From: Dipteris shenzhenensis
Lineage: Eukaryota
Length of the DNA: 64,000 nucleotides
NCBI GenBank assembly: GCA_047967505.1
Contig: CM106538.1
Reading direction: 5' to 3' (one strand)
Below, in pieces: positions 2,593-55,666 of this stretch (positions within the stretch are counted from its first letter, which is position 1; each line of letters starts with the position of its first letter). The notes beneath the pieces are model-generated. The model was not told the origin of the DNA. It ran no database searches and was given only the letters and a program-made list of their open reading frames with translations. The position numbers were made by a program, and so were the translations under genes.

Positions 2593-3075
2593 TAGCTTCT
2601 TTCGAAGCTCTTTTGGCACATGTGCATATGCCTCACACCCAAATATATGCAAATGAGAGTTAGAGGGCTTCTTGCCACTCCATGCCTCTTCAGGAATACC
2701 ACCATCCAAACTCTTACTAGGTGATCTATTGATCACATGCACTGCAGTCTTCATTGCCTCAGCCCAAAAACCACCAGAAAGACTTGCATTGGAAAGCATG
2801 CATTGCAACCTTTCTTGAATGGTACGGTTCATCTATTCTGCAATTGGATTTTACTCTGGAGTACGAGGGGATGTGATCTCCCTCTTAATCCCACGTGTAT
2901 CACAGAAATGCTGAAAGTCATGAGAGAGATACTCTCCACCATTGTTAGTCTGTAGGCATTTAAGCGTTCTACCTGACTGATTCTCAACCAAGGCCAGCCA
3001 TTTCTGAAATACCTGGAACACATCACTCTTCCGAGCTATAGCATAAGCGCACACTTTCCTAGTTGCATCATCAAT
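2593..3075 (-). pseudogene. Copia A integrase core, distal fragment
   Basis: IDDATRK...NGGEY...NRTIQERLQCML...FWAEA...FGCEAYAHVPKELRKKL. It continues exactly from the YYVTFI broken at 16550. Confidence 0.9.
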
Positions 3076-3399
3076 AACACACTATTCAAAATTTTTGGAC
3101 TTTCTCTCTTGGTTTGGACTTTTTTTTGGAGCATATCCTCTCCACTCAACTTCACTTAGTGAGCTAAAAAATTGGGTTTTTTTGAGCACTAAATGGGTCA
3201 CTTATATACAAATATGGCCTTATTAAGCTAGTAAAAAGTCAAGTGGTAACCTCTAATTTAAAAAAAAAAGGCTCAGTGAAGCTATAATTCCCAAACTCAT
3301 GCATGGTGCCCCCATCCAATAACTATAATAATAATAATAGTAGTCTCCTAACTCAAGTTCAATTTTAACACTATGAAGTGAAAATATGACACCATATGA

Positions 3400-3562
3400 A
3401 AAGAGTTTGTTGAATTCAACATATAAGTGGTGTATAGATACACCATTTTTTTGAAAAAAAGAGTTTGTTGAATTCAATATATAAGTGGTGTATAGATACA
3501 CCCTTTTTTTAAAAACAAACCATACAATAAATTATCTTATTGGTGGTGTATAGATACACCAT
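3400..3562. repeat. Left subterminal repeats (GTGGTGTATAGATACACC palindrome x3)
   Basis: Copies near 3426, 3485 and 3543. Related motifs occur at 15966-16325. Confidence 0.75.
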
Positions 3563-3794
3563 TTGTATGGAAAAAAGCATACAAAACATTATCTTATGCA
3601 TCTGAATCTCGTTCAGAGTCATCAGATTCATGTAATGTATTTGAGCTTGATGGGTCAAGTCTTGCCAAATGATGTTTAATATGGACACGACTTGGATCAG
3701 GGATTGTGATACATTTTTCAACATTGTATCCATGCTTCTTTTTAAAACTTCGTGTCCTTGATTTCCAGCAATGAATAATGCTACTGACTTCCAC

Positions 3795-6700
3795 CTATGT
3801 TAATCCCTCATTATTTGGAACCCATTCACGTTTCTTTTGCAAGCATCCCTCATAGAGTTGTTTTATTGTATATCTTCTTGGGAGATTTTTCAATGGCTTT
3901 GGTTCATACCATAAAGCTATAAATGTTATAGGAGTTCCCTTGTCATCCCTTTCTATCTTAGCAACCTTTGCAACCCAAATTGGGCCACCTTGGTCATCCA
4001 ACTCTGAACCCGGATCAGATGCCCAAACTGCGACAAATAGACCCTCTTCAATCTCATTAGATGGTATAAACTCTGGTAAGGGTTTGTCTCCCTTCCTGCC
4101 ACAATATTTTCGAGGTAAAAGGCATTCCTCTGCTTCCTCCATATCTACTAACATATTTATATCCAAAAGAAAACTTGGTGACCTAGCTTGTTTCGGCCAA
4201 AAGGATTCAGAGTATTCAATGCTCATTAAGTTTTCTTGTCTTTCTAAAGATTGGATAAGTGCTTTAGTTGATTTAATTGTCTCCAAATTCTTAGTTGATT
4301 GCTTAGGATATTTCTGCATCATACTTTGAAGATGTTTAATGAAGGCTTTCAAGCCTTTCATTTCATCTATGTCAAGTGATTTGTTTTTTGCAAGAACAAA
4401 TCTAGTTTCCTCCAATGGAATTATTCGTTGTAATAAAGCATATGACTCACTCCATAAATGATCTCCATCTACTGAGTAGTGCTTCCATTGCATCACTGGA
4501 ATATTATTATGCATGTGTAACCGAAAGTAGTGTGGATTTGTGTGTCCTATTAGGGCATCATCTTCTGTTTGTAAATGTGGCTCTATGAATGCTCTCCAAT
4601 CTACCATCCTCTCTAAGATAGCCACTTCTGATTCTTCCTTGCGAGAACCTCCAATTTTTTTCCCAATTCGAAATAGCATATCCTCCATTGTCAAAACATC
4701 CATTGCCTTCAACTCACCAGAGATAACACTGAAGATTTGATCTATGTCTTCATGTGTATGGCCGACAAGAAGAAAGCCAACTTCCACTTCTTCAAATATT
4801 TTCAAACCAACCAGCATAGAGCATAAAGCAAATATATATTTATTCTTGTTCTCTCTCCAACAATTATCAGCTTGTATTCGCAATGTGTTAGGCAAACATC
4901 CGCGAGCATCTCTGACCTTTCTTATTGCTTTCATGATTGATGTAACAACCTGGTTACTATCATGGTCATGCAAATATCAATCCATACATCACAAAAGATT
5001 CAGTATCCATGTACTAATACTCCACACAAGTGTGTTTTTAGTCCACGTTTGCCCTCCAATGCCAGTGGGATACATCTATATCGTGGCAAAGTGGTTGTAT
5101 TCTGGTCCATGCCATCAATGGTGATGCACATGGACTTATCGACATGTGAAATAGCTTCCTCTCTCCAAGAAGCATACAACTTTCGAGCATTCTGCACATG
5201 ACGTAAATGGATTGATCGCCATTTAATATATTTTCCTCGCTGCTGCTCACATTTACTATGTTCAATGGCATTTTTTAATTCATCACATGTGTTACATTTT
5301 GACATCCTTTGCTTTGATGGTGTCTTGACATGGCAAAAATCTCTACGCCAAATTTTGTACAAGGTTGATCGTGAAATCATGCTCTCATCTCTGTCTTGTA
5401 AGTTTTATTGATAGTTTCTAGGATGACCTTCTTTGTCATTCCCAAAGGAAGATGTTGTTGGCATTTGACACGTCCATCTAGCATTGTTTGTTGAAGATGA
5501 GGCTGCCGTAATGCATGGTCTTCGAGAACTTGCTTTAATGTTGCGGTTGCATTTATAGTGCTTCCATGGCATTTAAGCTTGTAGGTATTTCCATGAATTG
5601 TATGAATAACTTTTTCTTTCACCTCTGCCCAGATGGTCCAGTATGTGCCATGTGATAGTCCAGTTAACCATTGATATCCTCGATTGCAAATGGGTCTCCC
5701 ATTAACCATGGGTTTCAATCTAGGTTTACAGTGTCCTGTGCTCAAATCTTGATTAGAGCCTTGATGAAGAAAGCATGAAAACTCTTGAAGAAGATAGTTA
5801 TGTCTATTAGGCACTGTCTTACTCCAAATACCAAGGCGTATGGCTGCACAATCATCTTTCCCAACTTTTCTAATGCAAAGTCTCTTGCAACAAACTCGCA
5901 TAAGCATCCTTTCCATATTCTCCTCGAATAGCATCACATGTATGATTCTTCGCCTCTTCACACTCACATACTTTCTTTTTGTAAATAGTGTCTTGCGTTT
6001 TCTAGTTGTAAGACCATCAAACCTCGAATCCATTTCCCTTGAATCTTCATCTTTATAATCAAATGCTGTGTAGGCTTGAGAATTATTTGATACCTTATAA
6101 TATCTTGGAAATGGCAATCTGGTTGACATGTTCATTGATGTCAATTTGTTGCCAATGCCTCTTGAATTTTGTGGTTGAACTATTTCTCCTTCGTAACTCA
6201 AGATTCTCCCATCTATATTCTCTGGCATGCTAGCAACAATATTACGAACAACATGACAAGTCTCAGATTCTCTGCCCCTTTTGCCTTGTATTCGAGTGGT
6301 AACATCATGATCATTGTCACTAATATCATCAATTCCTGTTATTGCATCACTTATCCCATCGATCTTTGCGTGTATTTTTCTTTGTGGTCCCATCTTATTA
6401 TTCTCAACACATCTTCTGTCTTTTATATCAATAAGCATGTTTGAGTCACTTGCAGCACAAGATACCAGTGAGCCTGTTCGAGTCACTTGCAACACAGGAT
6501 AAATCTTCTATACCAGTGAGCCTGTTTGAGTCACTTGCAACACATGACAAGTCTTATATACTAGTAAGCCTATTCGAGTCACTTGCAACACAAGACAAGT
6601 CTTCTATACCAGTGAGTATATTTGAGTCACTTGCAACACAAGAAACCTTTTCTACATCAACATCTGTTACTATAATGTCCTCGATACCTGTGAGCATGCC

Positions 6701-7220
6701 ACTATGATACTCTTGATTACTACTATAGCTTCTTATCAATTTGGATCCCATTTGTGTTATAGTCTTTTTCTTCTGATAATATTCTGTTGTGTCTTCCATG
6801 ACATTGAAGGAAACTGTCTTGGGCAAACTTGATTTCAAGAAAGCTAACCCCCATTTACAAGTACTATGAACTTGTAGTTGAGACGTAGTATTATGATGTC
6901 TAATTGTGAAGTACTATCCATTGAATGACACCTGCACTAGTCAACTTAATTATCTCCACTATACAGAGAAAACTCTGAGCATAGCCCTTAAAGTTGCCAA
7001 TTGCTAAAACTTCTCCGGAGCAAGATAACATCTGTACTTTTTCCCCCTGCATATAAGTTTTCTTGATATCTTGAAAGTATGTCTTTGGAACAATTTCATC
7101 TTGGTCCCAGAGTGTTCTTTGTGCTTGCATATCAAATATGTCACATTGTAAGATATCTCCCAATGTTTCAAAGTCTCCATGTGGATATTTTAAATATAGG
7201 GTATATCTAACATGTTGCAC
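3795..7220 (-). pseudogene. Sola-type DDD transposase (DUF7869-like) with stops and frameshifts
   Basis: SKCNTC, ITIDGMDQ, LRIQADNCWRENKN and FLLVGHTHEDIDQIFS motifs, plus an upstream CCKRLC. Split across ORFs 6900-7220, 6554-6838, 5377-6495, 5000-5380 and 3795-4973. Confidence 0.8.
6430..6650 (-). repeat. ~48-bp coding tandem repeat (SCVASDSN) in the transposase N-terminus
   Basis: GAGTCACTTGCA(A/G)CACA occurs five times. Confidence 0.85.
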
Positions 7221-7253
7221 AAATCGAGAAAAATCATAAAATTTTGATTGTAT

Positions 7254-7650
7254 TTTAGGGTTAGGGTTTAGGGTTTAGTATTTAGGGTTAAGGATTTAGG
7301 GCTTAGGATTTAAGATTTAGTGTTTAGGGTTTAGTGTTTATGATTATATTTTTAGGGTTTAGGGTTTAGGATTTAGGGTTAAAAATATAAGGTTTAGGGT
7401 TTAGCTTTTAGGGTTTATGATTATTGTTTTAGGGTTTAGGATTTAGGTTTTAAGGTTTAGTATATAAGATCATGAGCTTAGAGTGTAGAATCTAGGGTTT
7501 AGAATTGAAAATCAGGTTTTAGAATTTAAGTTATAGGGATTAGGGTTTAAGGTTTAGGGATTATAACTATTATATAAGTTTAAGAGCTTAGATTATATAA
7601 CCTAAGATTTAGGGAACTTTAGGATTTAAGATTTAGGGTGTAAGATTTAA
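7254..7650 (+). repeat. Degenerate telomere-like (TTTAGGG)n tract
   Basis: Many perfect and degenerate TTTAGGG/TTAGGG units. Confidence 0.85.
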
Positions 7651-7756
7651 GATATATAGACTATATAAAATATGCATTGTAAAGTATTTAGTTTAGATAT
7701 ATATAGACTATATGTTATATGCTTTCCAAAGTGTTTTGTTTATAAGTACGATACAT

Positions 7757-8495
7757 TGCAAAGGCTTTACTTTAAGTAAGTATAAGTCTACCTAGTCAAA
7801 GTATCCTACTGATTAGGGACAAGCACATAGGCTAAAAGCACACCGATTCATATTTTTTTACATTCATGCTGCATGGTGTATCAGAAGGTACAATCCTTTG
7901 TAAAGGCTTTACTTTAAGTAGTTACAAGCCTACCTAGTCAAAGTATCCTACTGATTAGGAACAAGTACATAGGCTAAAAGCACACCGATTCATATTTTCT
8001 TACATTCATATTTTCTTATTGATTAGGAACAAGTACATAGGCTAAAAGCACACCGATTCATATTTTCTTACATTCATGCTGCATGGTGTATGAGAAGAAA
8101 TGAAAAAGTATGTGATAAGAAATATTCGAAGAAATATGTATTCCATATCATGGACATTCTAAGAAATATGTATTCCATATCATGGATACCATGGATATCT
8201 GGTGGTTGCTAAAGTAAAAAAATGATATGGATGCAATGATATTGTAGTCTTCTAGATTCTATGGTTTTAAATACCTACCTTACAAATACATTATCTAATT
8301 TTGCATTCTTCGACTAACTAACAAGTATTATACACATGGAATCATGGATATCTGATGGTTACTAAAGTAAAAAAATGATATGGATGCAATGATACTATAG
8401 TCTTCTAGATTCTATGGTTTTAAATACCTACCTTACAAATACATTATCTAATTTTTCATTCTTCGACTAACTAACAAGTATTATACACATGGAAT
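7757..8495. repeat. Local tandem duplications (~140-bp and ~160-bp units)
   Basis: AAAGGCTTTACTTTAAGTA...CACACCGATTCATATTTT occurs 2-3 times. CATGGATATCTG...TATACACATGGAAT occurs twice. Confidence 0.85.
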
Positions 8496-8974
8496 AAAAG
8501 CATACATGCTAAAAGTAAGTGTGTAAATTTTAATATTTTCTTATTTTTAAAATTAATTTAATTCTTTTATTGACTACTTTTTAAAATTGAAAGATTATTA
8601 GTATATAACCTACATAATTTTAAATGTTATTAATGTATAATATTAATTATTTATATATTTATTTAAATTTATATAATAATTAATTTATATTTATATTAGT
8701 TTTTAAGTTAATAATGTATAGAAGAGCAATATATTCACTAATTCTTCATTGTTTTAAGAGTAAGTATTATATAAAGCACATATGCTAGAAGACCTCCCTT
8801 TCAACTTTTTTTTAAATTAATGTATTTATATAATAATTATATAATATTTATATTAATTTATAGATTAATAATATATATTTTTAGCAAAATTATATTTTAA
8901 CATTAGTTAATAATAATTTATTATATTATGGAGTAAAAATATTATAAATGGATTTCTTATATTAATAAAGTGTA

Positions 8975-9810
8975 GTGAGAAGAGTTTTTTGAAAAGACTT
9001 ATGATTAAATTTTGTTTTGAAGTTGTTGCGTATGCAATAGGTAGGGACATTTGAGTGGTTTTGAGGTTGATAGAGATATTTGTAATAAAATGTCATGAGA
9101 AGAGTTTTTTGGAGGATTTGTGATAAAATTTTGTTTTGAAGTTGTTGCGTACGCAATAGGTAGGGAGGTTTGAGTGGTTTTGAGGTTGAGAGAGAAATGT
9201 GTAATAGATTGTTTTTTTTTTAAAGGAGTTTTTTGGAGAGATTTATGATAAAATTTTGTTTTGAAGTTGTTGCGTACACAATAGGTAGGGAGGTTTGAGT
9301 GGTTTTGAGGTTGAGAGAGAAATGTATAATAGATTATTTTTTTTTTTAAAGGAGTTTTTTGGAGAGATTTATGATTAAATTTTGTTTTGAAGTTGTTGCG
9401 TACGCAATAGGTAGGGAGGTTTGAGTGGCTTCGAGGTTGAGAGAGAAATTTGTAATAGATTGTTTTTTTTGGTTGATGAGTTTTTTTGAGAGATTTATGA
9501 TTAAATTTTGTTTTGAAGTTGTTGCGTACGCAATAGGTAGGGAAGGGTTATGAGAGTTTGAGTTAAAGAGGAAAATTTGAGGAAAAAAAGATTTAATGCT
9601 AAAATGGTTTTTAAAGTTGTTGCGTACACACAAGTTTTTGAGAAAAAGATCGGATTTGAAAAAAAATTCAAATTTATAAAAGATTTAATGCTAAAATGGT
9701 TTTTAAAGTTGTTGCGTACACACAAGTTTTTGAGAAAAAGATCGGATTTGAAAAAAAATTCAAATTTATAAAAACTTGATTCTTAGAAGTTCTTGCGTAC
9801 GCAATAGGTT
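8975..9810. repeat. Tandem array of ~120-bp and ~90-bp units, each with a TTGCGTACGCAA palindrome
   Basis: About 8 copies of AAGTTGTTGCGTAC(G/A)CA... Confidence 0.9.
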
Positions 9811-9938
9811 AGAAATGAACTCACCTCTTGCAACATTTTGAAAATTTTTGAGAATCTTGCAACAGGTTGATGAGAGGAGAGAAGCGTGGAGTGTAAACGA
9901 ATGATCTTTGAATGAAAGAGAGAATGAAGAATGTTCTA

Positions 9939-10023
9939 CTTATAGTGAACCTAAAAGAACTAAAAAAACCTTAAAAACTAAAAAAAGCTGACTTGACCTA
10001 AAAGCTATTTATTTCCTATAAAA
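9939..10023. promoter_or_regulatory. Putative bidirectional promoter (back-to-back TATA boxes)
   Basis: TATAAG on minus at 9939-9944 and TATAAAA on plus at 10017-10023. Each is followed by a pyrimidine-rich leader and a splice donor (AG|GTGAGT at 9824, minus; CAG|GTA at 10102, plus). Confidence 0.5.
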
Positions 10024-10104
10024 CTCTACTCCTCATTCTGTCTCACAACTCTCTTATTCTCTCTCACAACTTTCCTGGAGCTCCACCACCTCTCCACTCA
10101 GGTA

Positions 10105-12132
10105 CTCCCTCCCTCCCTCTTCTCCAACTTCCTCTCTCCCCTCCCCTCCCCCTCCCTTCCCCTCTCCTCCCGCTTCTCCCCTCCCTTCCCTTCCCTTCCC
10201 CCTTCCCCTCTCCTCCCTCCCCAAGGGCCCTTCCCCTCCTCTCCTTTCCCTCCCCGTCCCGCTGCCTTCCCCTCCCCCTTGCCCCGCTCCTTTCCCTCTG
10301 CTCGTCCCGCCCCGTTCCCCTTCCCCTCCCCTTGTCCTGTGCCCCGCGCTGCCTTCCCCTCCCCCTTGCCCCCGCCCTCGCCCCGTTCCCTCCTCCCGCC
10401 CCCTTCCCTTCCCCCTTGCCCCCCGTGCCTGCCCCCTGCCGCTGCCCCTTCCCCTTCCCCCCTCCCTATCGTCGCTCCCCCTTCCCTCCGCCCCCCCCTT
10501 CCCTTCCCCCTTGCCCCCCCCCTTGCTCGCCCCCTGCCCCTGCGCCCGCCCCCTACCCCTTCCATCGATCGACGGAAGGGGTAGGGGGCGGGCGCCGGGG
10601 GGGGCAAGGGGGAAGGGAAGGGGGGGGCGTGGGGAGGGCAAGGGGGCGGGCGGAGGGAAGGGGGGGGGCATGGGGAGGGCAAGGGGGGCAAGGGGGTGGG
10701 CGAGGGGAGGGCAAGGGGGGCGGGGAGGGCAAGGGGGCAGGCGAGGGGCGGGGAGGGGGGCATCACCCCCCTCACCAGTTGCGTGCGCAACAGGGGGCAA
10801 GGGGAGGGGCAAGGGGGAAGGGAAGGGGGGGCGTGGGGAGGGCAAGGGGGCAGGCGGAGGGAAGGGGGGGCGTGGGGAGGGCAAGGGGGCGAGCGAGGGG
10901 CAAGGAGGGCAAGGGGGCGAGCGAGGGGCGGGGAGGGGGGCATCGCCCCCCTCACCTCTTGTGCACACAACAGGGGGCAAGGGGAGGGGCAAGGGGAAGG
11001 GAAGGGGGGGCGTGGGGAGAGCAAGGGGGGCGGGCGGAGGGAAGGGGGGGGTCTGGGGAGGGTGAGGGGCGGGGAGGGCAAGGGGGCGGGCGAGGGGCGG
11101 GGAGGGGGGCATCGCCCCCCTCACCTGTTGCGCACGCAACAGGTGCGAGGTGAGGGCAAGGGGAGGGGCAAGGGGGAAGGGAAGGGGGGGCGTGGGGAGG
11201 GCAAGGGGGCAGGCGGAGGGAAGGGGGGGGCGTGGGGAGGGCAAGGGGCGGGGAGGGGGGCATCGCCCCCCTCACCTGTTGCATGCGCAACAGGTGGGGG
11301 GATCCCGCACCTGTTGCGCACGCAACAAGTACGGGGCGGGGGCAAGGGGAGGGGCAAGGGGAAGGGAAGGGGGGGGCATGGGGAGGGTAAGGGGGCAGGC
11401 GGAGGGAAGGGAGGGGGGCGTGGGGAGGGCAAGGGGGCGGGCGTGGGGTGGGGAGGGCAAGGGGGCGGGCGAGGGGCGAGAAAGGGGGCATGGGGAGGGC
11501 AAGGGGGTGGGCGAGGGGCGGGGAGGGGGGCATCGGCCCCCGCACCTGTTGCGTGCACAACAGGTGGGGAGATCTTGCGTGCGCAACAGGAGGTGGGGAT
11601 CCCCCCACCTATTGCGCACGCAACAGGTGCGGGGCGAGGGCAAGGGGAGGGGTGCGGGCAAGGGGAGGGGCGGGCAAGGGGGAGGGGCGCGGGCGGGGAG
11701 GGGGGCATCGCCCCCCAGGGCAAAGGGAGAGGTGGGGCGGTGTGGTGCGAGCAAGGGGAGGGGCGGGGTGGGGCGGGCGCGGGGGGCAAGGGGGAAGGGA
11801 AGAGGGCGGGTACGGGGAGGGCAAGGGGGAGGGGGCGTGGGGAGGGCAAGGGGGCGGGCAAGGGGAGGGGGCGGGCACGGGGAGGGCAAGGAGGAGGGGG
11901 CGTGGTGCGTGGGGCAAGGGGGAGGGGGCACGGGTGGGGAGGGGGAGGGGCTCACCTGTTGCGCGGGCGACGATGCCCCTCCGCCTCCCCCTCCCTGCCC
12001 GCGCCCCCTCCGCCTCCCCCTTGCCCCATGCCCCCTTTCCCCTTCCCATCCCCACCCGTGCCCCCTCCCCGCCCCTTCCCGTCCCATCCCCTCCCGCTCC
12101 CCCTTCCCCGCGCCTTCCCTGCACCCTGTCCC
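10105..12132. repeat. Extremely GC-rich, G-quadruplex-prone repeat region with a central palindrome
   Basis: C-rich to ~10560, then a hairpin centred on TCGATCGA (10565-10572), G-rich to ~11970, then C-rich again. Confidence 0.9.
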
Positions 12133-12377
12133 GTTAAAATTAAAAAAGTTAAAATAAATAAAACTTAAAAAAAATCAAAAAATTAAAATAAATTTTAAAT
12201 ATAAAAATAAACTAATTAATTAAAATAAAATAATTAAAAAGGAAAAAAATATTTTATTTTAAAAATTAAAAATCAATAAAACTTAAAAGAATATTTAATT
12301 AAAAATTTATTTAATATTTTGAGTTTGAAAATCATTGTATTTCTCATTTTTTATTTTTGATTGCTTTTCAGAAAACT

Positions 12378-15300
12378 ATGGCTTCCATGGCTTCCAGTTT
12401 TGGTTCCAAGGTGTCTTTCAAATACCTTGAACATGCTTGGTATTTTATGGAGCACAAATCAAAGTATTTTTTGGTGATCACTTCAGAGAACATATGAAGC
12501 CCGAAATATTCTGCAGAGGCAGTAAGAAATGGTGGCATGGTATCAAACATCAATATTAAAGAAAACAATTTGATAGAAATTGTGTGCCAAGGAAAGAATG
12601 ACGAGGTGGTTTACAAGTTACGAGTTACTCCGAAGCACCTCTTGAAGCCGTTACCAGATTCAATTGAGGGATCCCAAGAATTACTTAATGCCTTAGAAGC
12701 ATTGAAGAAAATGTGGGATGCATTTCCAAGTGGTGGTGTTGAACCTTCAGCACCACTAAGTATGCCATCTATAACATATAACCCTCAAGTACCATCAATA
12801 TCTATGGCGGTAACTCCGGTAACTCCAGCAAGTGTAACTACAGTATCTCCAACTGTACCTACACCATCGACTGCTACAACTACAGGAACAAGAAGGAGTG
12901 ATCGTGGAGCAGACTCAAGTGCTATAGCTAATCCCAGAAAGAGAGCAAAAATAACTCCTACTCCATGTGCAGATCGCTCGAGTGCAGGCTATTTAAAACC
13001 AGGCGAAAAATTGGATAGCGATGAAGAGGAAGATCAACAAGAAGAAGATACAAGTCTCGAAGACTTTTCTATAAGTGTGGCAGACTTACATACTCCAGAG
13101 GATGAGGGATACATTTGGGGATTTTCACAATTCAGCGTGGCCACAATGCTTATTGATCGAGCTTCATTGTTCACAAATCAAAGAAAGCTCGATAAGATAT
13201 TTGCATGCAAATTGTATGAAGATACAAGGAAAACAAGAACTCCAGTTGCCACTAATATCACTCTTCGTCCTATGGCGTTTAAGAGACTTCAAGAAGATGA
13301 TCCTACATTGCCTGATGTCACATTTCAAAAGCGTGTGGACTTTCTTGATGCTTTTGAGAACTTTAGAAGGAGTGACTTTGTTCGTGGAGAGGCTTTGTAC
13401 CAAAGCCGATATGGGAGTGACATCGAGAAGAAATACATGCTGGCAAAGAATAGATTCTTGAAAAGATGCAGGTTTGAGCCCATTGATGGGCAACACTTTT
13501 GTGAAGCTTGCAGGATCGCCCTTGATGAGGGAAGAAAAGGAAACTTGCCATAGATTGAGTGGATGGAAACGTTTCAACGGGTCATTTGTCATATATGCAT
13601 ATTTAATGATGACTCAAAGTACATTCTAGAATCAGAGAGGCTGAATTCTGCTCCATTTAGGTTGAAAAAATGCTCTTCTTTTTTTGAGATCTTGATAAAG
13701 GCAAGGGAGTTATGGATGGGCTGTGGAAAGCCACAAATAGTGAAGGGCAAGAGACCTACATCGGAGTACATGGCAAAGAGGACTCGGTTCTATAGATGCT
13801 TGAAAGGTGTTGTAAGCAATACGCAAGGCATACCAGGTAATAAGGTTGAGGCAAAGGATTTGAACACCACCGTTGCAAGATACAGGGATGTTACCTGCAT
13901 TGTCTTCCGCGAGGACTCAGTGTTTCAGAGCATTGTGGATGTTTGCCAAGCATATGAAACAGGAAAGATATCCTTTGAGGCACCAGAGCACATTGCAACT
14001 CAGAGGAAAGAAATAAAGAAACCGATGTCTATTGTTTGGTGGAGAGCTTTAAGGTTTGTTCCAGATGCAATAACAGAAGAAGTATGCAAGAAGATCCTAA
14101 GTGGTGACTGCTTCTTTGGAAAGAAGAGCAAGCATAGCAACTTAGATGAAGTGGTCACCTGAATGATTCAAAGTGAGGCTACTCTCTCGGCACTATTATT
14201 TTTATTGAAATCTGATGATGAGTTAGCTAGCAAGTCAATTGATGTGGATAAGAAGAAAGCACTTAGCCTAGGTCAACTCCTTGATAAGACATGGGCTAGA
14301 AAGTGGTTGGCTTCAATGGATGCAGATGCCACACCAACAAAGGATCTAAGAGCTAAAATGCCAAAGGTTGTTGAGACAGAATATATGGACATCAAGAAAA
14401 AGGCCTTGCAGTCCAGTACCCAAGGTAGAGCAATTGGTGGTTTAGATGATGGTTCTCCATTCAGCTTCTCTTATGATATCCTGCTATCAGAGAATGATAC
14501 AAAATTTGCACACATCAATGGCACTGATACAGAGCATTTCATAACAATGAGTGGTCATGCTTGGGAGAAGCCGTGCGTATTTTTCATAGATGAATTGCAA
14601 GACCTTGCAGTGTCACGGATAGTTAAACTTGTGCGGTTTATCATAGAAGGTCCTATGGCAGATAAGAAAAGATCAACGTTGGTCCTGTTCATGACAGAAT
14701 CACAAAGGGATGCCCTATATGTGAGTTTGACATCTTCATTTGGATGATTTACTTTCAAAAGTATACCATGGTATAGTCCTACATAATCATATGACTGTCT
14801 TGGAAGGCACCGCCATTCAAGTCCTGCAGCCTTTCTTGATGTGCTTCTTATCGAGGGGTGGTGGTAATCTAATCCAAACTCCTTTAAGGACTCTCGAGCT
14901 TCATTACTTTGAGGACAATAAGGTTAAGCTTGATGCAGCAATGGTGGATTACAAAAAGCCGATGGATCCTGATGTGATACTAGAGATGACAAAGAATTTA
15001 TTGAATGATGGGTGCGAAGTAGCATTGTATCGAATGGGTTTTGCTGCTGAGAAATTGCTACACCAAGGTAGAAATGTAAATGTCATTGATACCCCCCATC
15101 AAATTGAGTTCTTTGACACATATTACAGTTGCACTCTTTCTTTGAGGAGGAAAATGTCAAAGAAGAGGGTAGTGAGTCTGAGGGTGATGATTCTAGCTCA
15201 GGTGATGATGAGGATGAAAGCTCTGCATCCGATGACTTATGGCAAGAAGAAATCCGCACAAAGAATAAGAGTGATCAATTGTCAACTAGAGTCAAGGAAG

Positions 15301-15803
15301 TTCCACTCATCATATGGGAAGGTTCGCGGCAGCAAGAAGTTACAGTAGTACAGCACGTCACAGGTAAAGGTAAGGCTAAAGAGGTGGAAGCACTTCCCTT
15401 AAAATTAAAAGTGAGGAAGGCACCCTTGATCTTGGATGAAGGACAGGCAAGTGGATCGATCTTGGGTGAAGGACAGGCAAGTGGATCAAGCAAGGAAGCC
15501 TTACTCAAAGAAGGTATGGACGAGGCAAAGCATGATTAGGAGGAGTTACCAGGAGGCATAGATGGTTCTTCAACCATGACCTTACAGACTCCAGAGCAGC
15601 CTACTAGTTAGGAACCTAGTAGCCAGGTCCCTACTTACCAAGAACTTGGTCATGAGACTCTAGAGCAACCTACTAGTTAGGTGCTTGGAACTGAAGAGCA
15701 AACTACTAAGGACCTTGCTACTGAGACTCCAGTCTTAGAGCAGCCTATTAGTCAGGACCCTGGTAGTCAAGGGCCTAGCATTGAGGACATTGGTACTGAG
15801 TAA
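12378..15803 (+). pseudogene. Second gene of the Sola-like element: putative ParB/DGQH-like domain, degenerate amino-methyltransferase-like domain and acidic tail
   Basis: ATG at 12378 after the acceptor TTTTCAG. One frame continues through single stops (~12495, 13551, 14160), with frameshifts near 14750 and 15130. FEPIDGQH is at 13473-13496. Domain calls are by eye only. Confidence 0.6.
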
Positions 15804-15965
15804 CATGATGGCTAACAGCTTTGTAATCACAAGTTTTGAACTTCTATGCAAAGCTAATATCTAATAAAAAGTTTACTACTTTTTTGATTTCTTTGCTCTC
15901 ATTATTGTGTATAAAGATTGTTTATGAGGGCCATTTTATTCTTAACGGTGTTTTTTAATACCAAG

Positions 15966-16450
15966 TGTGGTGTATATGTACACTACTTACACATAAAAGG
16001 ATTTACCTACACTACCTTTCTAAGGGCTTTATGTACACCACCTTTCTAAAAGAAATGGTCATAAAGGTGTGTGCACACCACTTATACATAAAGGTGTTTA
16101 TTTACACCACCTTTCTAAGAGTATTGGTCATCTATTATTGGTCATCTATTGATGTTCTTAGGTGATTATGAAGATGTTTATGTAGACCACTTTGTAAGAG
16201 AATTGGTCATCTATTGATGTTCTTAGGTGATAGTTGCTCAATTCACAAGAAGTTATGAAGATGTTTATGTAGACCACTTTGTAAGAGATTTTTGTGAAGT
16301 TATGAAGATGTTTATGTAGACCACCTTTGTAAGAGATTGGGTTATGCATTGATGTTCTTAGTACTTAATCATTAAATCTTTTGTTTTGAGTTGGCAAATC
16401 TAGTTCAAAATCATTAAATCTTTTGTTTTGAGTTGGCAAATCTAGTTCAA
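15966..16450. repeat. Right subterminal repeats
   Basis: GGTGT...ACACCAC palindromic variants; TTATGAAGATGTTTATGTAGACCAC x3; a 42-bp tandem duplication at 16368-16452. Confidence 0.75.
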
Positions 16451-16549
16451 AAAACAACATTACTAGTATATTCAAAATTTTTGGACTGTTTTTTAGTCCA
16501 TTTCTCAAATTGGACTTTACACAAGTCCAAAATTTTTGAATAGTGTGTT

Positions 16550-18400
16550 CAATGAATGTCACATAGTATTCAGCCCCGCTTAATGACCGTGTAGGCATGG
16601 GACCACATATGTCTGAATGCACCAAATGAAGCTTTTCAAACTCTTTCTTTCCCCTTCTTTTATGGGCTGATTTAGTCTGCTTCCCATAGAGACAGTGCTC
16701 ACAAAATTCAAAATCAGAGAAACTTAAATGTGGTACATAACCCAAATGGCATAAGAATTTCATTCCATTTTGGCTCATGTTCCCCAACCTGCAATGCCAA
16801 AAAGAAGTGCCTGGCTGCTCGGTTATTGCAACAACATGATCAAATACCCCTGATACATGTAAGGGATACAAAGTCCCACACTTGGCACCCCTGGCCAAAA
16901 GCATAGAGCCCTTTTGAATTTTCCAACTCTGAAAGCCAAAAGTGGTGTGAAAACCAGCATCATCTAGCTGGCCCACTGGAATAAGACTCTTGCTCAACTT
17001 AGGCACATGTCTCACATGTTTCAAAACAAATGCAGACCCATTTGCAAAAGAAAACTTTATGTCACCTGCTCCCACTATGTCACATGCATAGTCATTTCCA
17101 AGATGCACACAACCTATCTTTCGACTATCATAAGTGGAGAACCATTCCCTATGGGGAGTAACATGGAATGAAGCAACAGAATCCAAAATCCAATCCTTGG
17201 AATATGCATCATATAAAGTGCTAAGCAACTCTGCAGATAAACTAGACATGAAGAGAACGTCATTGTCACTATCATGTGTGACTGCATTGATCTCCTCGAT
17301 CTTAACTTTTCCTTTGTCCTCCCTTGGACTCTCTTCCTTCTGATTTGCACCCCAATTTGCATTCTTTTTCTTATCCTTTTGCTCTCTTTTCAGCTTGTAG
17401 CAATCCTTTTTCATATGGCCCTTCTTGCCACAATGGTAACACTCAATGTTTTGTGCCCTGGATTTGCTATGAGACTTCCCTCTTTCTTGGGACTTCCCCT
17501 TGAACTGTGATCTGCCCCTTTGCACATTTAAGGCTGCATCTTGCTTGTTGCTATCCATAGACTTCCGTCTAATCTCCTCGGCCAACAAGCTACCCACAAC
17601 ATCATCAAATTTCAGTACTCCACTAGGTGCAGAGTTACTAACAGTTGTACAGAAGGTATCCCATGAGGATGGCAATGAACATAAGAGAAATATTGCCTTA
17701 GTCTCCGCATCAAAATTAATCTTCTGAGCTTGAAATTGTTGGCTGAAAATAATATTGAATTCATTCAAGTGAGAAGCAATGGAGACCCCTTCCTTCATCT
17801 GCAGCTCAAACAACCTCTTCATGAGGTAAACTTTATTAGAGGTAGTTTCCTTTTCATAAGTGGCACCTCGGGGGGGTCACTATGTATAAACCCTCTATAC
17901 CACGTGCGTTCAAGGCCTATTTCTAAAATCCCTTATCTGTAAAATTTTCATTAATAAAATGTACCCCTTTTCTATACAAATCTGTAAATTTTTTCCAAAA
18001 CTATTTTAAATAGTCCCTTATGTATATTTATTTCTGTAAATTTTAGAAATAAAAAATATCCTTCTGTTGAACTCATGTGATAGGGTTACATATGATGAGT
18101 GACCCCCCTGAGAGTGGCACACAATTTCTTCTACAAATCTTTCGTAGTTTGCTCATTTACTACTATGAAATAAATTGACTCTGTAATATGAATTCTAATA
18201 GTAGATTTTGCTAATGCATCCAACTCATTCCAATCATCCTCAGACATATTTGCAGGATTAGCTTCAATCCTTGCCAAGGGTTTAATCTGCTTCTTTTGAA
18301 TAAGCACATCCCTTATTTGTTCTTTCCGCAAAGAAAAGTTTGTCCCATCAAACTTTTTAATGCTTAAAAACTTCTTTTCAGACATGGAAGAGGATGCCAT
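16550..18400 (-). pseudogene. Copia A gag-protease-integrase (5' part), interrupted by a MITE
   Basis: IKKFDGTNF, LLCSLPSSW, zinc knuckle CYHCGKKGHMKKDC, WILDS, GAG-pre-integrase WHCRLG...CEHC, and LVHSDICGP. Confidence 0.92.
17867..18112. mobile_element. MITE, copy 1 (8-bp TSD)
   Basis: TIR CTC(G/A)GGGGGGTCAC and TSD AGTGGCAC (17859-17866 / 18113-18120). Excision restores gag KKLCATYEK. Confidence 0.92.
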
Positions 18401-28278: not shown

Positions 28279-29600
28279 AGGATTCACAGTGGAATTCATC
28301 GAGGAAAATATATAAGATGGAGAGAATTCCATTTACACCATGTGCAAGATTCTAGAATGGTGTATGCTTCTTGAAGGGAGGAAGTTATTTCAGATATCAG
28401 AAACTCTATGTGCATCACCATTGATGGAATGGATCAGAATACAACAACTTTGCCTACATTTAGACACATCCCACCTCCATTAGAGGGTAAACATGGACTT
28501 AAAACACACTTGTCATGTGTCAAGGGTTTTGACTCTTTTGTGATCTATGGATTGAATGCTTGCATGAACATTATAGTAACCAAGTAGAAACATTCATCAT
28601 GAAAGCAATAGAAAAGGTCATGGATGCATGCTTGCATATACAGGTTGGTAATTGATGGAGAGAAAATAAGAATAGATACATTTTTGCTTTGTGTTCTATG
28701 CTAGTTGGTTTGGAAATATTTAAACAAGTGGAAGTCGGCTTTCTTCATGTCAGCCATAAACACGAAGACATAGATCAAATATTTAGTACAATTATCTCTG
28801 GAGAGTTGAAGTCTAAGGATTTTTTGACAATGGCTCGACAATGGATGACATGAAACGTCAAATTGGGAAAAAAATAGGAGGTTCTCGAAAAGGAAGAGTC
28901 AGAAGTGGCTATCTTGGAGAGGATGGTAGAGTGGAGAGCATTCATAGAGCCACATTTGAAACGAGGAGATGATGCACTATGTGGATACACAAATCCACAC
29001 TACTTTCATTTTAGCATGCATGGCAACACTCCAGTGATGCAGTGGAAGTACTATTCAGTGGACACATATCATTTACGGAGTGCACCATATGAGTTGCTAG
29101 AACAAATAATCCCCTTGGTGGAGACTATATTAGTTCTCATAAAAAACAAAGCACTTGACATCGATGAAATTCTTGGAGAGTGCACCACTAAGAATTCCTA
29201 GGTATCACATGCGTTCAAGGGGTATTAAAAAAACCCCTCAACTAAAAATTTTCTCCTAATAAAACCACCCCTCTTTACTCATTGAAGTAACAGACTTTTT
29301 TCTCCTCCTGTTATTGTAAACTTGTTATAAAGTTTTCAAAAGTGGCATGAAAATATTCCTACTTTTGAATGCACATGGTACACTAAAATTTTGGAGCCCC
29401 CCGAGATGAAATTAATGGCTTGCAAGCATTCATTTCTCACATTAGGAGTTGATGCAAAAATACCCAGAGCAGTTTGGGAAAAATATGGAGATAATGATGG
29501 TGGCAAATGAATCTCTTCTCAAATATCTAAAATAGCAAGAAAATTTACCGAGCATAGAATACTAAGATCTATTGCTTTAAAATTGAAGTTATATAGAAAA
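28279..29600 (+). pseudogene. Second, more decayed Sola-type transposase fragment
   Basis: ITIDGMDQNTT, ENKNRYIFALCSMLVG, HKHEDIDQIFS and AILERMVEWRAFIEPHL, colinear with 4100-5250 (minus). Confidence 0.88.
29172..29405. mobile_element. MITE, copy 2
   Basis: TSD ATGAAATT (29164-29171 / 29406-29413), right end CCCCCCGAG, and the shared internal motif CA(C/T)GCGTTCAAGG. Confidence 0.85.
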
Positions 29601-45151: not shown

Positions 45152-47113
45152 TCAAGGGGCCAGCTGTTTGCCCTTGTCCTTTAGGAGGAAAGAGCGATAG
45201 TGTCCCAAAGCACTCAAGGGGAAATACACGGGGTAGAGGTGGTATTTCATGTAGAAGTAGCCAGGGAAACCTGTCCCAGTGAAGCAAGCCTCTCTCCACG
45301 ACCCATCTTCACATTGAGTCCTCAAGAGATAGCCCACACCAGCCTCGAGAGGCTCCCTCTCATACCTCCCCATTCCATCCCCTACAGCCAGGAGCCCCTC
45401 TATGCCCCATGCACTTTGTGAGGCTGTGGCACACTCGTTGTGCCCTTTGAGAGACACATCCTGGTAACTCCAGCAAGTCTCTCCCCACCCCCCGTCCCTT
45501 GCTTTGTTGTTTTTTTGGGCTTCCACCAGCCATTTGGCCCCTCGCTCCATCTCTGATCGATGTGCCTCTGGTGCTACCACAGACAAGGCAGCTAGCACTC
45601 GGCTCGTGCCGTAGATGTAGTTCACTCCCCATCTCCCAAACCAGCACCCTTCCCTCTCTTGCTCCTTGCGCAGATACGCCAGACCGCGTTTGATACAACT
45701 TGCTGGGAGTTGCTCTAGCTCGGGGTGCATCTTCAGCCTTCCCGCCATCTCCAGAACCCCCGCCGTTACGTCTGCAGTATTGGGGTCCGTCATCGCCTTT
45801 AGGTCACCGTAGGGCGTCTCGTTCAGCCAATTCTGATCGTTATCCCGATCATATGCCCCCCAACCACCTGCTTTGCACTGCAAGCTGCTTATCCAATCCA
45901 CTGCACGGGCGATGGCAGAACGCTTTGCGGGCTCGTTTGGAAGCTGAACGTCAGCCAGGGCCATCACTACACATGAAGTATCGTCGACATCGGGGTACCA
46001 GCGATTTTCGAACTGAAATGACCAGGCTCCAGCCCGGCTGCCTGCCATGCTTTTCACACGCCAGTCGCCCTCGGCCTGCAAAACCTGCATTTTCAGAAGC
46101 CATTGTCCAGCGCGCTGTAGGGCAGGGTGATGAGGAGCAAGTCCTGACTGCACTAGAGCGCGCATGGCCAGGGCAGTATCCCACACGCAAGACGTGCACG
46201 CCTGCATCCAGTAGTGTGTCTTCGTTTCCAGAGAAATGTTTCTAAGAGTCTCAAGAGCACGCTGGACTATGGGATCCGAAACGCTGTAATCCAGCACCTT
46301 GAGCGCCAGCAGAGTAAAATAAGTAGAAATAAACAAACCACCAAAGCCACCCGAGGTATCCTGCCGTCGGAGCAACCAGTTCTCTGCCGCTGCCAGACCT
46401 TTCTTTCGGAAGGGTACCAATTTGAAGCTCTCCGCAAGCTTGAAAGCACGATCGACGACAGTGAACAAATCTGTCCAATCTCCACGCCAGGGTCGCGAAT
46501 ACTGGGCTTCTTTCCGTGATCCCTCAACGTAAAGCTCATCCAGAGTGATAGCAGGGTCCGTTCGAAAGACGGGTCTTCGATCGAAAACGATAATCAAAGC
46601 GACGGTGCAAGACCGCGCCCAATAAGACATTTCGTAGATGTTGAATGGAATCCAGTTGGGAACTAACATCAGCCAAGGCGGGAGCGATGGAAGGCCACGC
46701 CAGTCGTAGCAGCCTAACAAAGCCAGGTTCATCTTCGTGAAAACACGAGTCTTGCTGATGCCACCTTTCTGGAGAATGAATTGCCGTGCGTTCTGAAGGG
46801 CTGGATCGGAGGCCGAGACATTCAACAGGCGGAGCGCCAAGTAGGCCTCCACCGAAGAACACAAGTGACCACCATCTCCGTAGAAAAGCTCCCAGCCCCC
46901 GTGTTCACACTGATGCTCTCGCAGATAGGTCTCCATCTTGTGCATCGGATGCGTGTCGTCTGTGCGAAGCAGTTTATACAGCATAACGGCTTCGGCTGTT
47001 TGGGTTACATTGCACTCTACTTCGGCGGACCAGTACCCTTCCGGATACTGAACTGACAAAAGATACTCTTGGGCCCGCTTGATGGCCTCCTCCAAGTTTG
47101 TTTGAGTGCTCAT
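45152..47113 (-). CDS. shc: Squalene-hopene cyclase family triterpene synthase (cyanobacterial type), 653 aa, no coding intron
   Basis: Catalytic YPDVDDT, several QW repeats, WFGRWGVNYIYGT, FTGTGFPG, and the PYGDLKAM and GGISKTRVFTK segments typical of cyanobacterial SHC. The frame is full length and open. Confidence 0.97.
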   Translation of the reverse strand: MSTQTNLEEAIKRAQEYLLSVQYPEGYWSAEVECNVTQTAEAVMLYKLLRTDDTHPMHKMETYLREHQCEHGGWELFYGDGGHLCSSVEAYLALRLLNVSASDPALQNARQFILQKGGISKTRVFTKMNLALLGCYDWRGLPSLPPWLMLVPNWIPFNIYEMSYWARSCTVALIIVFDRRPVFRTDPAITLDELYVEGSRKEAQYSRPWRGDWTDLFTVVDRAFKLAESFKLVPFRKKGLAAAENWLLRRQDTSGGFGGLFISTYFTLLALKVLDYSVSDPIVQRALETLRNISLETKTHYWMQACTSCVWDTALAMRALVQSGLAPHHPALQRAGQWLLKMQVLQAEGDWRVKSMAGSRAGAWSFQFENRWYPDVDDTSCVVMALADVQLPNEPAKRSAIARAVDWISSLQCKAGGWGAYDRDNDQNWLNETPYGDLKAMTDPNTADVTAGVLEMAGRLKMHPELEQLPASCIKRGLAYLRKEQEREGCWFGRWGVNYIYGTSRVLAALSVVAPEAHRSEMERGAKWLVEAQKNNKARDGGWGETCWSYQDVSLKGHNECATASQSAWGIEGLLAVGDGMGRYEREPLEAGVGYLLRTQCEDGSWREACFTGTGFPGYFYMKYHLYPVYFPLSALGHYRSFLLKDKGKQLAP

Positions 47114-47118
47114 AGTTC

Positions 47119-47355
47119 CTAGGACAGCATAAAATTTCTGTGATTAGCCCAGGTTACAGTACGTTTTCTACGTAAAAAGTGTTATATAGAACACAAATCC
47201 AAAGACAACTGCACGAGCGATTGTTTGCAAACCTTGTACCTTCACTTGGTCAGTTATAGCTGGTGCAATATGATCTCTGCGCTTGGAAGAGTACTAAGGT
47301 CCAACTATCAAGCTCCAAAGATCTCGAAATTTTGAAAATCAAGCAAGGGACTCAC
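47119..47355 (-). other. Putative 5'-UTR intron of the SHC gene
   Basis: Donor G|GTGAGT at 47355, branch-like GCTAAT at ~47143-47148, and acceptor TAG 5 nt before the ATG. Confidence 0.55.
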
Positions 47356-53000: not shown

Positions 53001-55666
53001 TAGCTTTGAAAGCTTTGAAGTGCCCAAACACTTCACTTTTCTTTTTCATAAAATACACCCACAGTTTTCTGCTGAAGTCATCAATAAATGTGACAAAATA
53101 GTGACAGCCTCCAATAGATGCAGCTTTTGTAGTCCACACATCAGAGTGGATTAATTCCAATGGCTTTTTACTCTCTTGAACATGCCTAGGAAAAGGTTTC
53201 CTTGCCTGTTTCCCAAATTGACAGGCTTCACAAACCTTGTGCATTTCTGCAACCTTGAATTTTGGCAATCCTACAACAATATTTTGGGCTTGCATTGATT
53301 TAAGTCGCTGTATATTAACATGACCAATGCGTTTGTGCCAGATATCAATATCTGCAACTACACCGGTCCCATGTGCAAACATTGCTGCACTCAATTCAGG
53401 CATGTCTGCATCCAACGTAAACATCCTGCCCTTCTTCTTTCCTTTTGCTATCAAGCGACCGTTATTTTTCATATCCTCAACAAAGCATCCATGAGGATTA
53501 AATCTAACCTACAAGCCCTGCTCAACCATTTGACCAACAGAAACCAGGTTCTTGGTGATGTTCGGGACATGAAATACATCAGACAAGTATTTCTTTTTCC
53601 CATCCTGCATAGACAAAGGAATTTTGCCAATCTGCACAATAGGATGTGCAGTATCATCACCAGTCTCCACAAATCCTGGTTTTTCCATTTTTCTTGCATC
53701 CTGCATCCATTCAGCGTGACCTGTCATGTGGTTTGATGCACCTGAGTCAACATACCACACATCATTGCTTTCTTCTACACTTGTTACAGAATTTGTCATA
53801 TGCTGCACCATAAATAGATGCTCATTTCTATCATCACCCTGCCTGCTAGAAGATGCATAATTGCCTTGCTGCAATTTTCCATTCATAATGTCATTCTGCT
53901 TTTTGTAGCAGTCCTTAGCCATATGACCCATTTTGCCACAATAGTAGCATTCAACATTGCTGTTTGCATTTTGGCTTCTCTGCCATCCACCACGGCCTCT
54001 TTGGCTCCCCCTGCCTCTAGAGTTACCACGTCCTCTTGCATAGGACTGGTTTTCTTGCGTTTGCTACATATTCTGATTTCTACCATGGCCTGTAGATCGG
54101 CCTGCTCTACCTCTGCCTCTACCTCTGCCAGCATTTGAGTAGAAGACATTTTCTCTTGAAGTTCCTGCTGAAGAAGATGCACCACCATTTCTTTGCTCTT
54201 CAGAAATTAGAAGAGCAATCAACTCCTCAAAATCAGGAAATTTTTCACGGACGGCAATGGATGTCTGGAACTGTGCATAATCCTAGACCATTCAAGGTCA
54301 TAGAGACCAAATCGTCATCATTCACTGGCGACCCAATGGAAGCAAGTGCATCTGTAATTTTCTTCACTTTCATGTGGTAGTCATTTATGCTCAAATTTTC
54401 TCTCTGCACATTGTGCAACTCCTGTTTGAGTTGCATTTTCCTGGCTTGCGTATTTGTGCTGTACATTTTTGCCAAAGTATCCCATGCCTCCTTTGGCGTA
54501 TTCGCATCCTGAATATGCACAATCATGGAGTCCGAAATACTGATAGACAGCCAGTACATAACTTTCCTGGCTCTCTCATGCCATCCTTTGAATGCCTGCA
54601 TTTCCTGTTGACTGGGAACATTAGGAAGAACAGGTTCTTCTTCATTTCCTGTAATGAACTCCCAATAGCCTTTTCCCATCAAGAAATTCGTCATTCTAAA
54701 CTTCCATGCCTGGAAGTTGTTCTTGTCAAGCTTTTCAGTGACAATCTGTGAAAGAGAATCAGATGCCATTATAGAACACTGCAAAATATTCTGTCACTGC
54801 AAAAAACACAGCTTTTGCCTCACACGGGCAGAACTACAAAACTGACGAAAGTGGTATTTCACCACACAGTCACTTTCTAGTGACGATTTTGCATCAACAG
54901 GCAACAGGCATGAATCTGCAACTCCCAATATCTCTGCACACAGGCATACGATGCAATTTCTGCGGCACCTTTCCACCGGCTAGCTGCGCAGTGGTCGCAC
55001 AACAAAAAAACAGGGCCTTTTTCTGAGTGCCTGCGAAGAACTTCCGCCGTCAAAACGAGCCCCGAAACGGCCTCAAATCTGAAAAATAAAGTCACTAAGG
55101 GCTTCGCCCACTCCCGCAGCATATACTGCGCTCTCGCCACACCGCGAAGGGCGTCTCAATCTGAAACAGTGCACTCCTGCACTTCTGGCTATGCTACCTG
55201 CAGAGATTTGCTCCCAAACTCGAAATAGGAAAGCAACACTAGTCCTCTTACTAGGACACCACGAACTTGGCTTGCTTTCTTGAGCTCCTTACCACGAACA
55301 AGGCTCTGATACCATGAGAAGATAGTGGGAGAGAGGGAAGGAGTCTCACTTGTGGCTTTCTCACATGCACAATGGGGGAATACACACAAAGGTGGAGGCT
55401 GAAAACAGTTTTCCTCTTCTTAGTTGTGTAAGCCAAAAGAACTCTAGTACAAAGAAATAGAAGAACCCTATATGTGGGTCTCAAACCAAACTCAACTAAC
55501 TAAGGTGGCATACTAACTGAGCCACGATCTAGTGTAGATAAGGATAGCTGTCATCCAGCTATTATTTGTGGGCGGTGTACCAACCGCATCTCCAGCTAAC
55601 AAGTCGGTGACATAAATACACAACGGTCACCCTGGCATATCGCGAGTGGAGCTCGATATCTCAACA
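50037..55666 (-). mobile_element. Full-length Ty1/Copia LTR retrotransposon (Copia C)
   Basis: LTRs at 55315-55666 and 50037-50436, PBS (tRNA-Met) at 55303-55314, PPT from 50437, and TSD CCCCC. Confidence 0.97.
50397..54769 (-). pseudogene. Copia C gag-pol with a few stops and frameshifts
   Basis: Zinc knuckle, WYVDSGAS, IHSDVW, RSDGGGEY, YKARLV, QMDVKNAFLHG, YVDD, DADWAG and RTKHIEVHYH. Stops at 53509 and 52891; frameshifts near 54280 and 52550. Confidence 0.95.

Follow-up and report, generated by a model that had tools for sequence, protein, structure and literature searches.

A window of 64,000 nucleotides from contig CM106538.1 (assembly GCA_047967505.1, Dipteris shenzhenensis) was analysed, and all positions given below are those of this window. 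It contains a DNA transposon of 13,474 bp (3076-16549) that encloses two divergent genes. One, on the minus strand, is a transposase gene of the DUF7869 family (3663-7250), broken by frame changes or introns; the other, on the plus strand, is a decayed accessory gene of about 1050 codons (ORF2, 12378-15539), the product of which is predicted to have a ParB fold. The 5-kb spacer of the two genes consists almost wholly of tandem repeats, and arrays in it, which are likewise enclosed by the transposon, carry many copies of a 16-bp palindrome, TGTTGCG(YR)CGCAACA, which we consider here as a candidate recognition site for the ORF2 protein.

The distribution of the palindrome was determined by pattern scans of the whole window. 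With TGTTGCGNNCGCAACA and at most two mismatches, 13 matches were found, all of them between 9024 and 11625; in the shuffle control the mean expectation was 0.06, and none of 100 shuffles reached 13. Similarly, the 12-mer core TTGCGNNCGCAA was matched 13 times at one mismatch or fewer (0.55 expected). When up to three mismatches to the 16-mer were allowed, 18 matches were obtained, 17 of which fall within 2.95 kb (9024-11972); the other, at 54053, was taken as a chance match, and at two mismatches or fewer the 16-mer occurs nowhere else in the 64 kb. All 17 are upstream of ORF2, at no more than 3.4 kb from its ATG. Eight belong to an AT-rich tandem array (8980-9810, plus strand) composed of five copies of a 126-bp unit (sites at 9024, 9143, 9268, 9394 and 9520), two of a 92-bp unit (9618 and 9710) and one last copy (9791, alone). 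The remaining nine belong to a G-rich array (10569-11967, plus strand; units of ~150-270 bp) and are found at 10777, 10957, 11126, 11277, 11312, 11547, 11573 and 11610, the ninth being a truncated copy, or half-site, at 11957-11972. An initial annotation of this DNA had counted about 16 copies, eight in each array, which the scan bears out as 8 plus 9 at three mismatches or fewer; the six G-array coordinates that it listed are all confirmed, with an offset of 3 nt. Two possible relics of the palindrome with a deleted centre, TCTTGCAACA, lie at 9826 and 9855 (9826-9864, plus strand), though the statistics are weak: this 10-mer has 3 matches in the window versus 0.41 expected.

To describe the anatomy of the sites, all were aligned with 40 nt of flanking sequence. 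The three unit types of the AT-rich array (A, B and C) have ~28 bp upstream of the motif in common and are thus diverged versions of one AT unit, so that the 17 sites represent only about two independent backgrounds. The two arrays are opposite in GC content (30% in the AT-rich and 76% in the G-rich array), and what their units have in common is the 16-mer plus a few bases to its right (AGGT, then G-rich sequence). The initial claim that the surrounding units share nothing else thus holds in that the motif is essentially the only common block, but not for those few bases. When the consensuses of the four units were compared, all four agreed in 11 of the 16 motif columns and three of them in a further 4; the 40-nt flanks agreed only in scattered places. 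Half of the 32 half-sites (16/32) read exactly TGTTGCG, and conservation of the individual positions is high (T1 in 31, T3 in 30, T4 in 32, G5 in 32, C6 in 26 and G7 in 30 of the 32). The two central bases are variable and can be TA, CA or TG. Conserved arms around a variable centre form a pattern that fits a dimer site. Relative to a symmetric reference with a CG centre, which was composed for bookkeeping in this analysis, the arms carry 23 differences: 8 CpG transitions, 7 other transitions and 8 transversions. Derivation of the AT unit from the G unit by transition mutations was considered and rejected, because its many T's are not derivable in this way from a G/A-rich strand.

The two types of site differ in their capacity to fold. 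The hairpin potential of the AT-type site is not significant (z -0.9), and the arrays therefore share sequence, not structure. A cruciform or hairpin as the common function was rejected for the same reason, since AT-type sites do not fold. The G-type sites extend to a 24-bp palindrome and are nested in palindromes of greater length that have GGATCC at their centre (z -10 and -6.9). Each of the main G units contains a block, GGGGGGCATCGCCCCCC, and the palindrome in the context CACC-palindrome-GGTG; this 17-nt hairpin block (10755-11716) precedes five of the G-array palindromes, and a sixth copy, at 11700, has no palindrome. The 24-bp form (CACCTG...CAACAGGTG) contains on each strand both RAV1 motifs, CAACA and CACCTG (PMC6315318), which would suit a reading of the arrays as an enhancer that recruits host transcription factors of the B3/AP2 or basic helix-loop-helix type. 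We consider this very improbable: AT-type sites have no CACCTG and show CAATA in place of CAACA, the conserved core TTGCG..CGCAA lies outside both RAV1 motifs, and motifs of 5-6 bp often match by chance.

The arrays are located directly upstream of ORF2. The distance from the truncated copy (11957) to the ORF2 ATG (12378) is 406 bp, and this ATG stands just past an acceptor-like ttttcAG (12370-12371). The reading frame of ORF2 contains in-frame stops at 13551 and 14160 as well as frame changes, from which it follows that this copy is dead. A word-based homologue search for ORF2 found none. A full HMMER search identified 32 relatives; most of these are short pieces with identities of up to 93%, and the few long proteins (503-1488 amino acids) show 25-29% identity; the ORF2 of the window joins this family by phmmer with E-values of 6e-11 to 1e-7. 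A motif common to the relatives is WEPVDGQH[IVF]xxAC. None of 18 family members matched the Pfam ParBc model (PF02195) or a related model at E-values up to 10. Atlas gave a weak lead to DUF3723 (score 0.90-0.92, with recognition below threshold), and a scan of viral contigs with the ORF2 family found no relative.

Evidence for the fold comes from structure prediction. An AlphaFold model was made from an 18-sequence alignment for a family member (P0141), which is not the ORF2 of the window; its mean predicted local distance difference test score (pLDDT) is 70.9, and its core (residues 170-510) is mostly at 85-98. In a Foldseek search of this model against PDB, the top 17 rows were all ParB, Noc, KorB or sulfiredoxin (Srx), headed by 7BNR_A, with E-values of 0.019-0.5 and no row at 0.001 or better. 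A second look with VIA placed only members of the ParB/Srx superfamily among the top 23 entries (Z 9.2-4.7), unrelated rows scoring 4.5 or less. The matches included Srx 3hy2_X (Z 8.6, root-mean-square deviation (rmsd) 3.7, 93/101 residues), KorB (Z 8.1, rmsd 4.9, 202/209 residues), Noc (Z 8.0, rmsd 6.3, 200/213 residues), PadC (Z 7.9, rmsd 2.7) and pNOB8 ParB-N (211/250 residues). A search of 48,161 chains that was independent of Foldseek gave the same superfamily in all of its top 8 rows (Z 9.0-5.8; next row 5.1). In all three structure searches, the top rows for P0141 thus belong to the ParB/Srx superfamily only. By this modelling, a ParB/Srx fold is well supported for the ORF2 family. The whole-chain superpositions on KorB, Noc and pNOB8 ParB-N span residues 175-508 of P0141 (ranges rather than residue pairs) and suggest that the family may also possess a ParB-type helix-turn-helix DNA-binding domain.

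The arrangement of the sites around ORF2 was considered in terms of its possible control region. On the plus strand, 10017-10103 contains a TATA-like TATAAAA (10017-10023), a CT-rich leader and a donor-like CAG|GT (GT at 10102-10103), and it is possibly the promoter and non-coding first exon of ORF2. Combined with the acceptor-like site at 12370-12371, these signals lead to the reading of a 5'-untranslated region (5'-UTR) intron: the sequence suggests that the G- and C-rich arrays lie in a putative 5'-UTR intron of ORF2 (10102-12371) and the AT-rich array upstream of the putative promoter. The two clusters of palindromes had been said to flank a putative bidirectional promoter; the arrays do lie on either side of the TATA-like site, but any promoter there, bidirectional or otherwise, is putative.

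The other parts of the spacer are repetitive as well. Just upstream of the transposase gene is a degenerate plant-type telomere-like (TTTAGGG)n tract (7255-7640, plus strand), in which TTTAGGG was matched 8 times versus 0.03 expected, all matches being in 7260-7559; 32-bp and 153-bp tandem repeats follow (8124-8495). A C-rich arm (10104-10568, minus strand) is the reverse-complement version of the G-rich satellite and has no palindrome sites, and a second C-rich arm (11968-12130, minus strand) is followed by A-rich low-complexity sequence. Together with the beginning of the G-rich array, the first C-rich arm makes up an extended, imperfect inverted repeat (10104-11060; arms 71-87% complementary), at the centre of which is a perfect fold-back with zero spacer at 10568/10569 (z -8.4 for 10540-10600); a second G-to-C strand switch lies inside the truncated palindrome copy (11957-11972). 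No Rfam match was found in 7000-13000. Transcription of the inverted repeat within the leader or intron of ORF2, should it occur, would yield a hairpin RNA, a possible input to silencing.

Zero-spacer inverted junctions have the shape of fold-back read artefacts, and the junction at 10568/10569 could accordingly be an assembly artefact in which chimeric fold-back reads made the inverted G/C-rich arms and some of the palindrome copies. We find this hardly credible, given that the arms are only 71-87% complementary instead of near-identical, that the AT-rich array has no inverted structure and that the sites differ by point changes.

A more substantial rival is passive satellite growth, in which unequal exchange, slippage and rearrangement by fold-back (via hairpins) amplified one palindrome-bearing stretch of a repeat-prone spacer without any protein reader. 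Much in the spacer agrees with it. At least six unrelated tandem arrays are present; the 92-bp units are 100% identical to each other, a sign that duplication in this dead element was very recent; the palindromes of the G-rich array are nested in those centred on GGATCC, and G-to-C switches occur at 10568 and in the 11957 copy; flips of the central bases between CA and TG match inverted duplication at 11277/11312 and 11573/11610; and conservation of the neighbouring hairpin block equals that of the motif. Because the whole spacer is made of unrelated tandem arrays, repeat formation in it needs no selection, and nested palindromes together with strand switches at the sites imply that structural instability can multiply them. 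What passive growth leaves unexplained is that the sole block common to two otherwise unrelated arrays is a 16-bp dyad beside a ParB-fold gene, and that AT-type copies, which lack hairpin ability, keep their arms. As a complete account we regard it as possible, if somewhat unlikely. It does not exclude recognition of the sites by the ORF2 protein, since growth of tandem repeats is a documented route for the accumulation of VANDAL binding motifs.

The borders of the transposon are firm because its flanks join into a single copia integrase frame: the insertion splits a copia element (minus strand, 2950-3075 and 16550-17876), and the joined flanks give one integrase reading frame. The element starts and ends with 27-bp terminal inverted repeats (3076-3102, plus strand, and 16523-16549, minus strand; 26/27 complementary) and is flanked by a 4-bp target-site duplication, CAAT (3072-3075 and 16550-16553). 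A duplication of this length matches a feature of the Sola superfamilies, and Sola1 also generates 4-bp target duplications. The transposase was assigned to DUF7869 by Pfam (PF25273, E 6.9e-48, on 3795-4976), and tblastn of transposase homologues of ~1050 amino acids covers 3663-6057. The transposase has 125 homologues, the best of which are 33-36% identical. A second DUF7869 fragment (28297-29170, plus strand; 0.9 kb) is 78% identical to 4360-5242 and comes without ORF2 or arrays. A literature search on DUF7869 yielded no paper. For Sola2, a 4-bp target duplication is stated (PMC3627910), and short strings of the catalytic motif of the transposase are absent from the Sola2 alignment supplement, which is weak evidence against an assignment to Sola2.

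Binding to motifs repeated within the element itself is common among transposases, and the arrays lie between the two genes. The sites might therefore be bound by the DUF7869 transposase rather than by the ORF2 protein and serve as an internal enhancer for the assembly of the transpososome or as an operator for autoregulation. However, near both ends, the usual place of transposase sites, the element has a different 16-bp palindrome, GGTGTATAGATACACC, in three exact copies on the left (3429, 3487 and 3545; 3429-3560) and two copies with 3 mismatches each on the right (15969-16108); these subterminal palindromes are likely candidates for transposase binding, in a position more typical of it than that of the spacer sites. 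In addition, the spacer 16-mer was not found in the 27-bp terminal repeats or in the subterminal regions at three mismatches or fewer, and no DNA-binding domain was recognised at the N-terminus of the transposase. Binding of the spacer sites by the transposase is thus quite improbable in our view.

Precedents for an accessory protein that recognizes its own transposon were sought among described systems. Two papers of 2025 describe ParB-like accessory genes in algal transposons, and one of them reports adjacent tandem inverted-repeat arrays and proposes self-binding. PAG3 is an accessory gene of Plavaka (CACTA/EnSpm) transposons in the red alga Bostrychia moritziana, and the N-terminal part of its product is ParB-like only by HHpred, with 7BNR_B as the best hit at E 0.29 (bioRxiv 10.1101/2025.02.11.637652). 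As described there, the likeness to our case extends to a large DNA transposon, a protein with no Pfam match, resemblance to ParB by a remote method and adjoining tandem inverted-repeat arrays, and the best PAG3 hit is from the same PDB entry as the top Foldseek row of the ORF2 family, 7BNR_A. Both a ParB-like gene inside a bounded transposon and tandem inverted-repeat arrays beside that gene were found here. The likeness is one of description: PAG3 belongs to elements with a Plavaka transposase in a red-algal genome, whereas here a DUF7869 transposase is found in a plant-like genome, and PAG3 has a putative 2-oxoglutarate (2OG) oxygenase domain, whereas the C-terminal half of the ORF2 family is modelled at low pLDDT. 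In a survey of Ectocarpus transposons, a 21.5-kb brown-algal Sola1 element is described as carrying a ParB-like accessory gene, the product of which is proposed by the authors to bind and modify its own transposon. Like the element studied here, it is a giant DNA transposon with the accessory gene on the strand opposite the transposase, and the accessory protein is of similar size (~1100 amino acids, against ~1050 codons for ORF2). It differs in that Pfam detects no methyltransferase domain in ORF2, for which there may be only a faint resemblance at motif level, and in that the available description of the Sola1 element leaves cognate repeats unmentioned.

Other systems resemble the locus in part. 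In bacterial ParB-parS, Noc-NBS and KorB-operator pairs, as here, a protein of ParB/Srx fold is encoded beside clustered 16-bp palindromes; here, in contrast, the setting is a eukaryotic transposon with no ParA partner, no sequence match to the ParB family and no evident arginine box. En/Spm (CACTA) elements have TnpA sites as repeated motifs upstream of a promoter and beside a very GC-rich repetitive leader, the downstream control region, but these motifs are at the element end and are not 16-bp palindromes. In VANDAL21 of Arabidopsis, accumulation of the motifs bound by VANC proceeds through tandem repeats that form within introns and upstream regions (PMC5735166). VANC is comparable as an accessory protein of a plant transposon whose short motifs accumulated via tandem repeats near the element's own genes; its fold is unrelated (DUF1985/DUF287), and its motif is a 9-mer and not a dyad. 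Within a limited literature search, no report of a parS-like site in an element of the Sola or DUF7869 type was found.

We favour, at slightly less than an even chance and hence tentatively, a reading in which the ParB-fold protein of the transposon recognizes the dyads, which would have been multiplied as tandem repeats formed around the control region of ORF2. The palindromes are parS-like in form, and each 16-bp dyad would be occupied by a dimer of the ORF2 protein. The formation of tandem repeats in the non-coding DNA beside ORF2 would have multiplied these sites upstream of the TATA-like site and in the apparent 5'-UTR intron; with the sites multiplied around it, the control region of the element would be loaded with many molecules of the protein. 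This would probably serve to mark or regulate the element itself, by transcription control, by counter-silencing or by modification of DNA or chromatin via the C-terminal half of ORF2. With a CG centre, the motif matches the parS string quoted in the initial annotation at 12 of 16 positions; the length is the same, and the outer TGTT/AACA as well as C6/G11 agree. That string, in a form with N at position 5, was found in 6 papers. The probability of such likeness by chance (at least 6/8 half-site matches) is ~0.004, and the comparison being post hoc, the resemblance of the two sequences may be called suggestive. A stronger version, in which a bacterial-type ParB-parS mechanism operates in eukaryotic chromatin by loading at the dyads, spreading or clamping over the control region and protecting it from, or directing, epigenetic silencing, we regard as improbable.

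The proposal that the palindromes are binding sites for a dimeric protein of the element had already been made in the initial annotation. It gains from the ParB/Srx fold indicated by modelling, from the position of the arrays directly upstream of ORF2 and from published precedent; it does not gain from sequence searches with the Pfam ParB models (0/18) or from the second model described below. Several observations weigh against the self-recognition interpretation. The analysis rests on one dead copy; tandem duplication accounts for most copies of the palindrome, in about two independent backgrounds only, and the whole 5-kb spacer is a succession of unrelated tandem arrays. The palindromes are nested in larger ones and coincide with strand switches. 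Within the G units, the GGGGGGCATCGCCCCCC hairpin block is conserved at least as well as the palindrome, which the 11700 unit lacks altogether, and in the 92-bp units the right arm of the palindrome is decayed. The sites could have multiplied passively.

With regard to the protein, ORF2 has no sequence match in Pfam, PHROGs, NCBIfam or PDB. ParB proteins carry a canonical arginine-rich nucleotide-binding box, GERRxRA, and in WEPVDGQH[IVF]xxAC no arginine pair is seen at the putative position of that box. A second model, of family member P0147 (1097 amino acids, pLDDT 50.8), gave no ParB row in either structure search (Foldseek probabilities of 0.16 or less; best VIA Z 4.7); its residues 446-710 are poor, and the C-terminal half is modelled at a pLDDT from below 50 to 68. 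As to a modifying-enzyme domain in the C-terminal half (2OG oxygenase or DNA methyltransferase), no Pfam hit was found, and the best P0147 rows had Z 4.7 or less with a poor model.

The wider window is eukaryotic and plant-like, with copia and gypsy fragments, a CACTA DUF4218 fragment and plant-type telomere-like repeats, and it is depleted in CpG (observed/expected 0.39). Outside it, a metagenome scan for TGTTGCGYRCGCAAYAGGT retrieved 52 loci with one exact match each, and four of these have another, loose match; blastn showed no homology of any of them to the element, and the matches are at chance level. On one metagenome contig (L015; 1.4 kb, eukaryote-like, 39% GC), the motif stands at 221-236 and 1207-1222, two positions in a repeated unit that are separated by ~985 bp; of these copies, one is fully symmetric with a CG centre and the second is one base off. 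The contig has no other similarity to the element, and the pair is probably due to chance. Among sequencing runs, one DNA run ('algae metagenome') contains 9% of the searched words, and no RNA run was listed. Elsewhere in the window, an uninterrupted open reading frame of 663 amino acids (45152-47143, minus strand) has complete N- and C-terminal squalene-hopene cyclase domains (E 7e-114 and 1e-122). It coincides with a local GC peak (0.52-0.53) and is an intronless, bacterial-type gene in a plant-like genome.

The element is a DUF7869 transposon in a plant-like host, with a ParB-fold accessory gene and an explicit candidate target, and it is of the kind proposed in 2025. It is only recently that eukaryotic transposons were noticed to carry ParB-like accessory genes, the DNA targets of which are a matter of guesswork. 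In the present element, which has a different transposase family and a plant-like host, a short motif in many copies is a concrete candidate for such a target and ORF2 its obvious partner, and the self-recognition hypothesis thereby becomes directly testable. Should binding fail, the arrays would be a clean example of palindrome-driven satellite growth within a transposon. If the ORF2 protein does bind the palindromes, ParB-type DNA recognition would be extended to eukaryotic mobile elements, and a second kind of self-marking transposon protein would stand beside VANC. If, moreover, the full ParB-parS mechanism were to hold, a nucleoside triphosphate (NTP)-gated DNA-clamp system would have been domesticated by a transposon of land-plant type.

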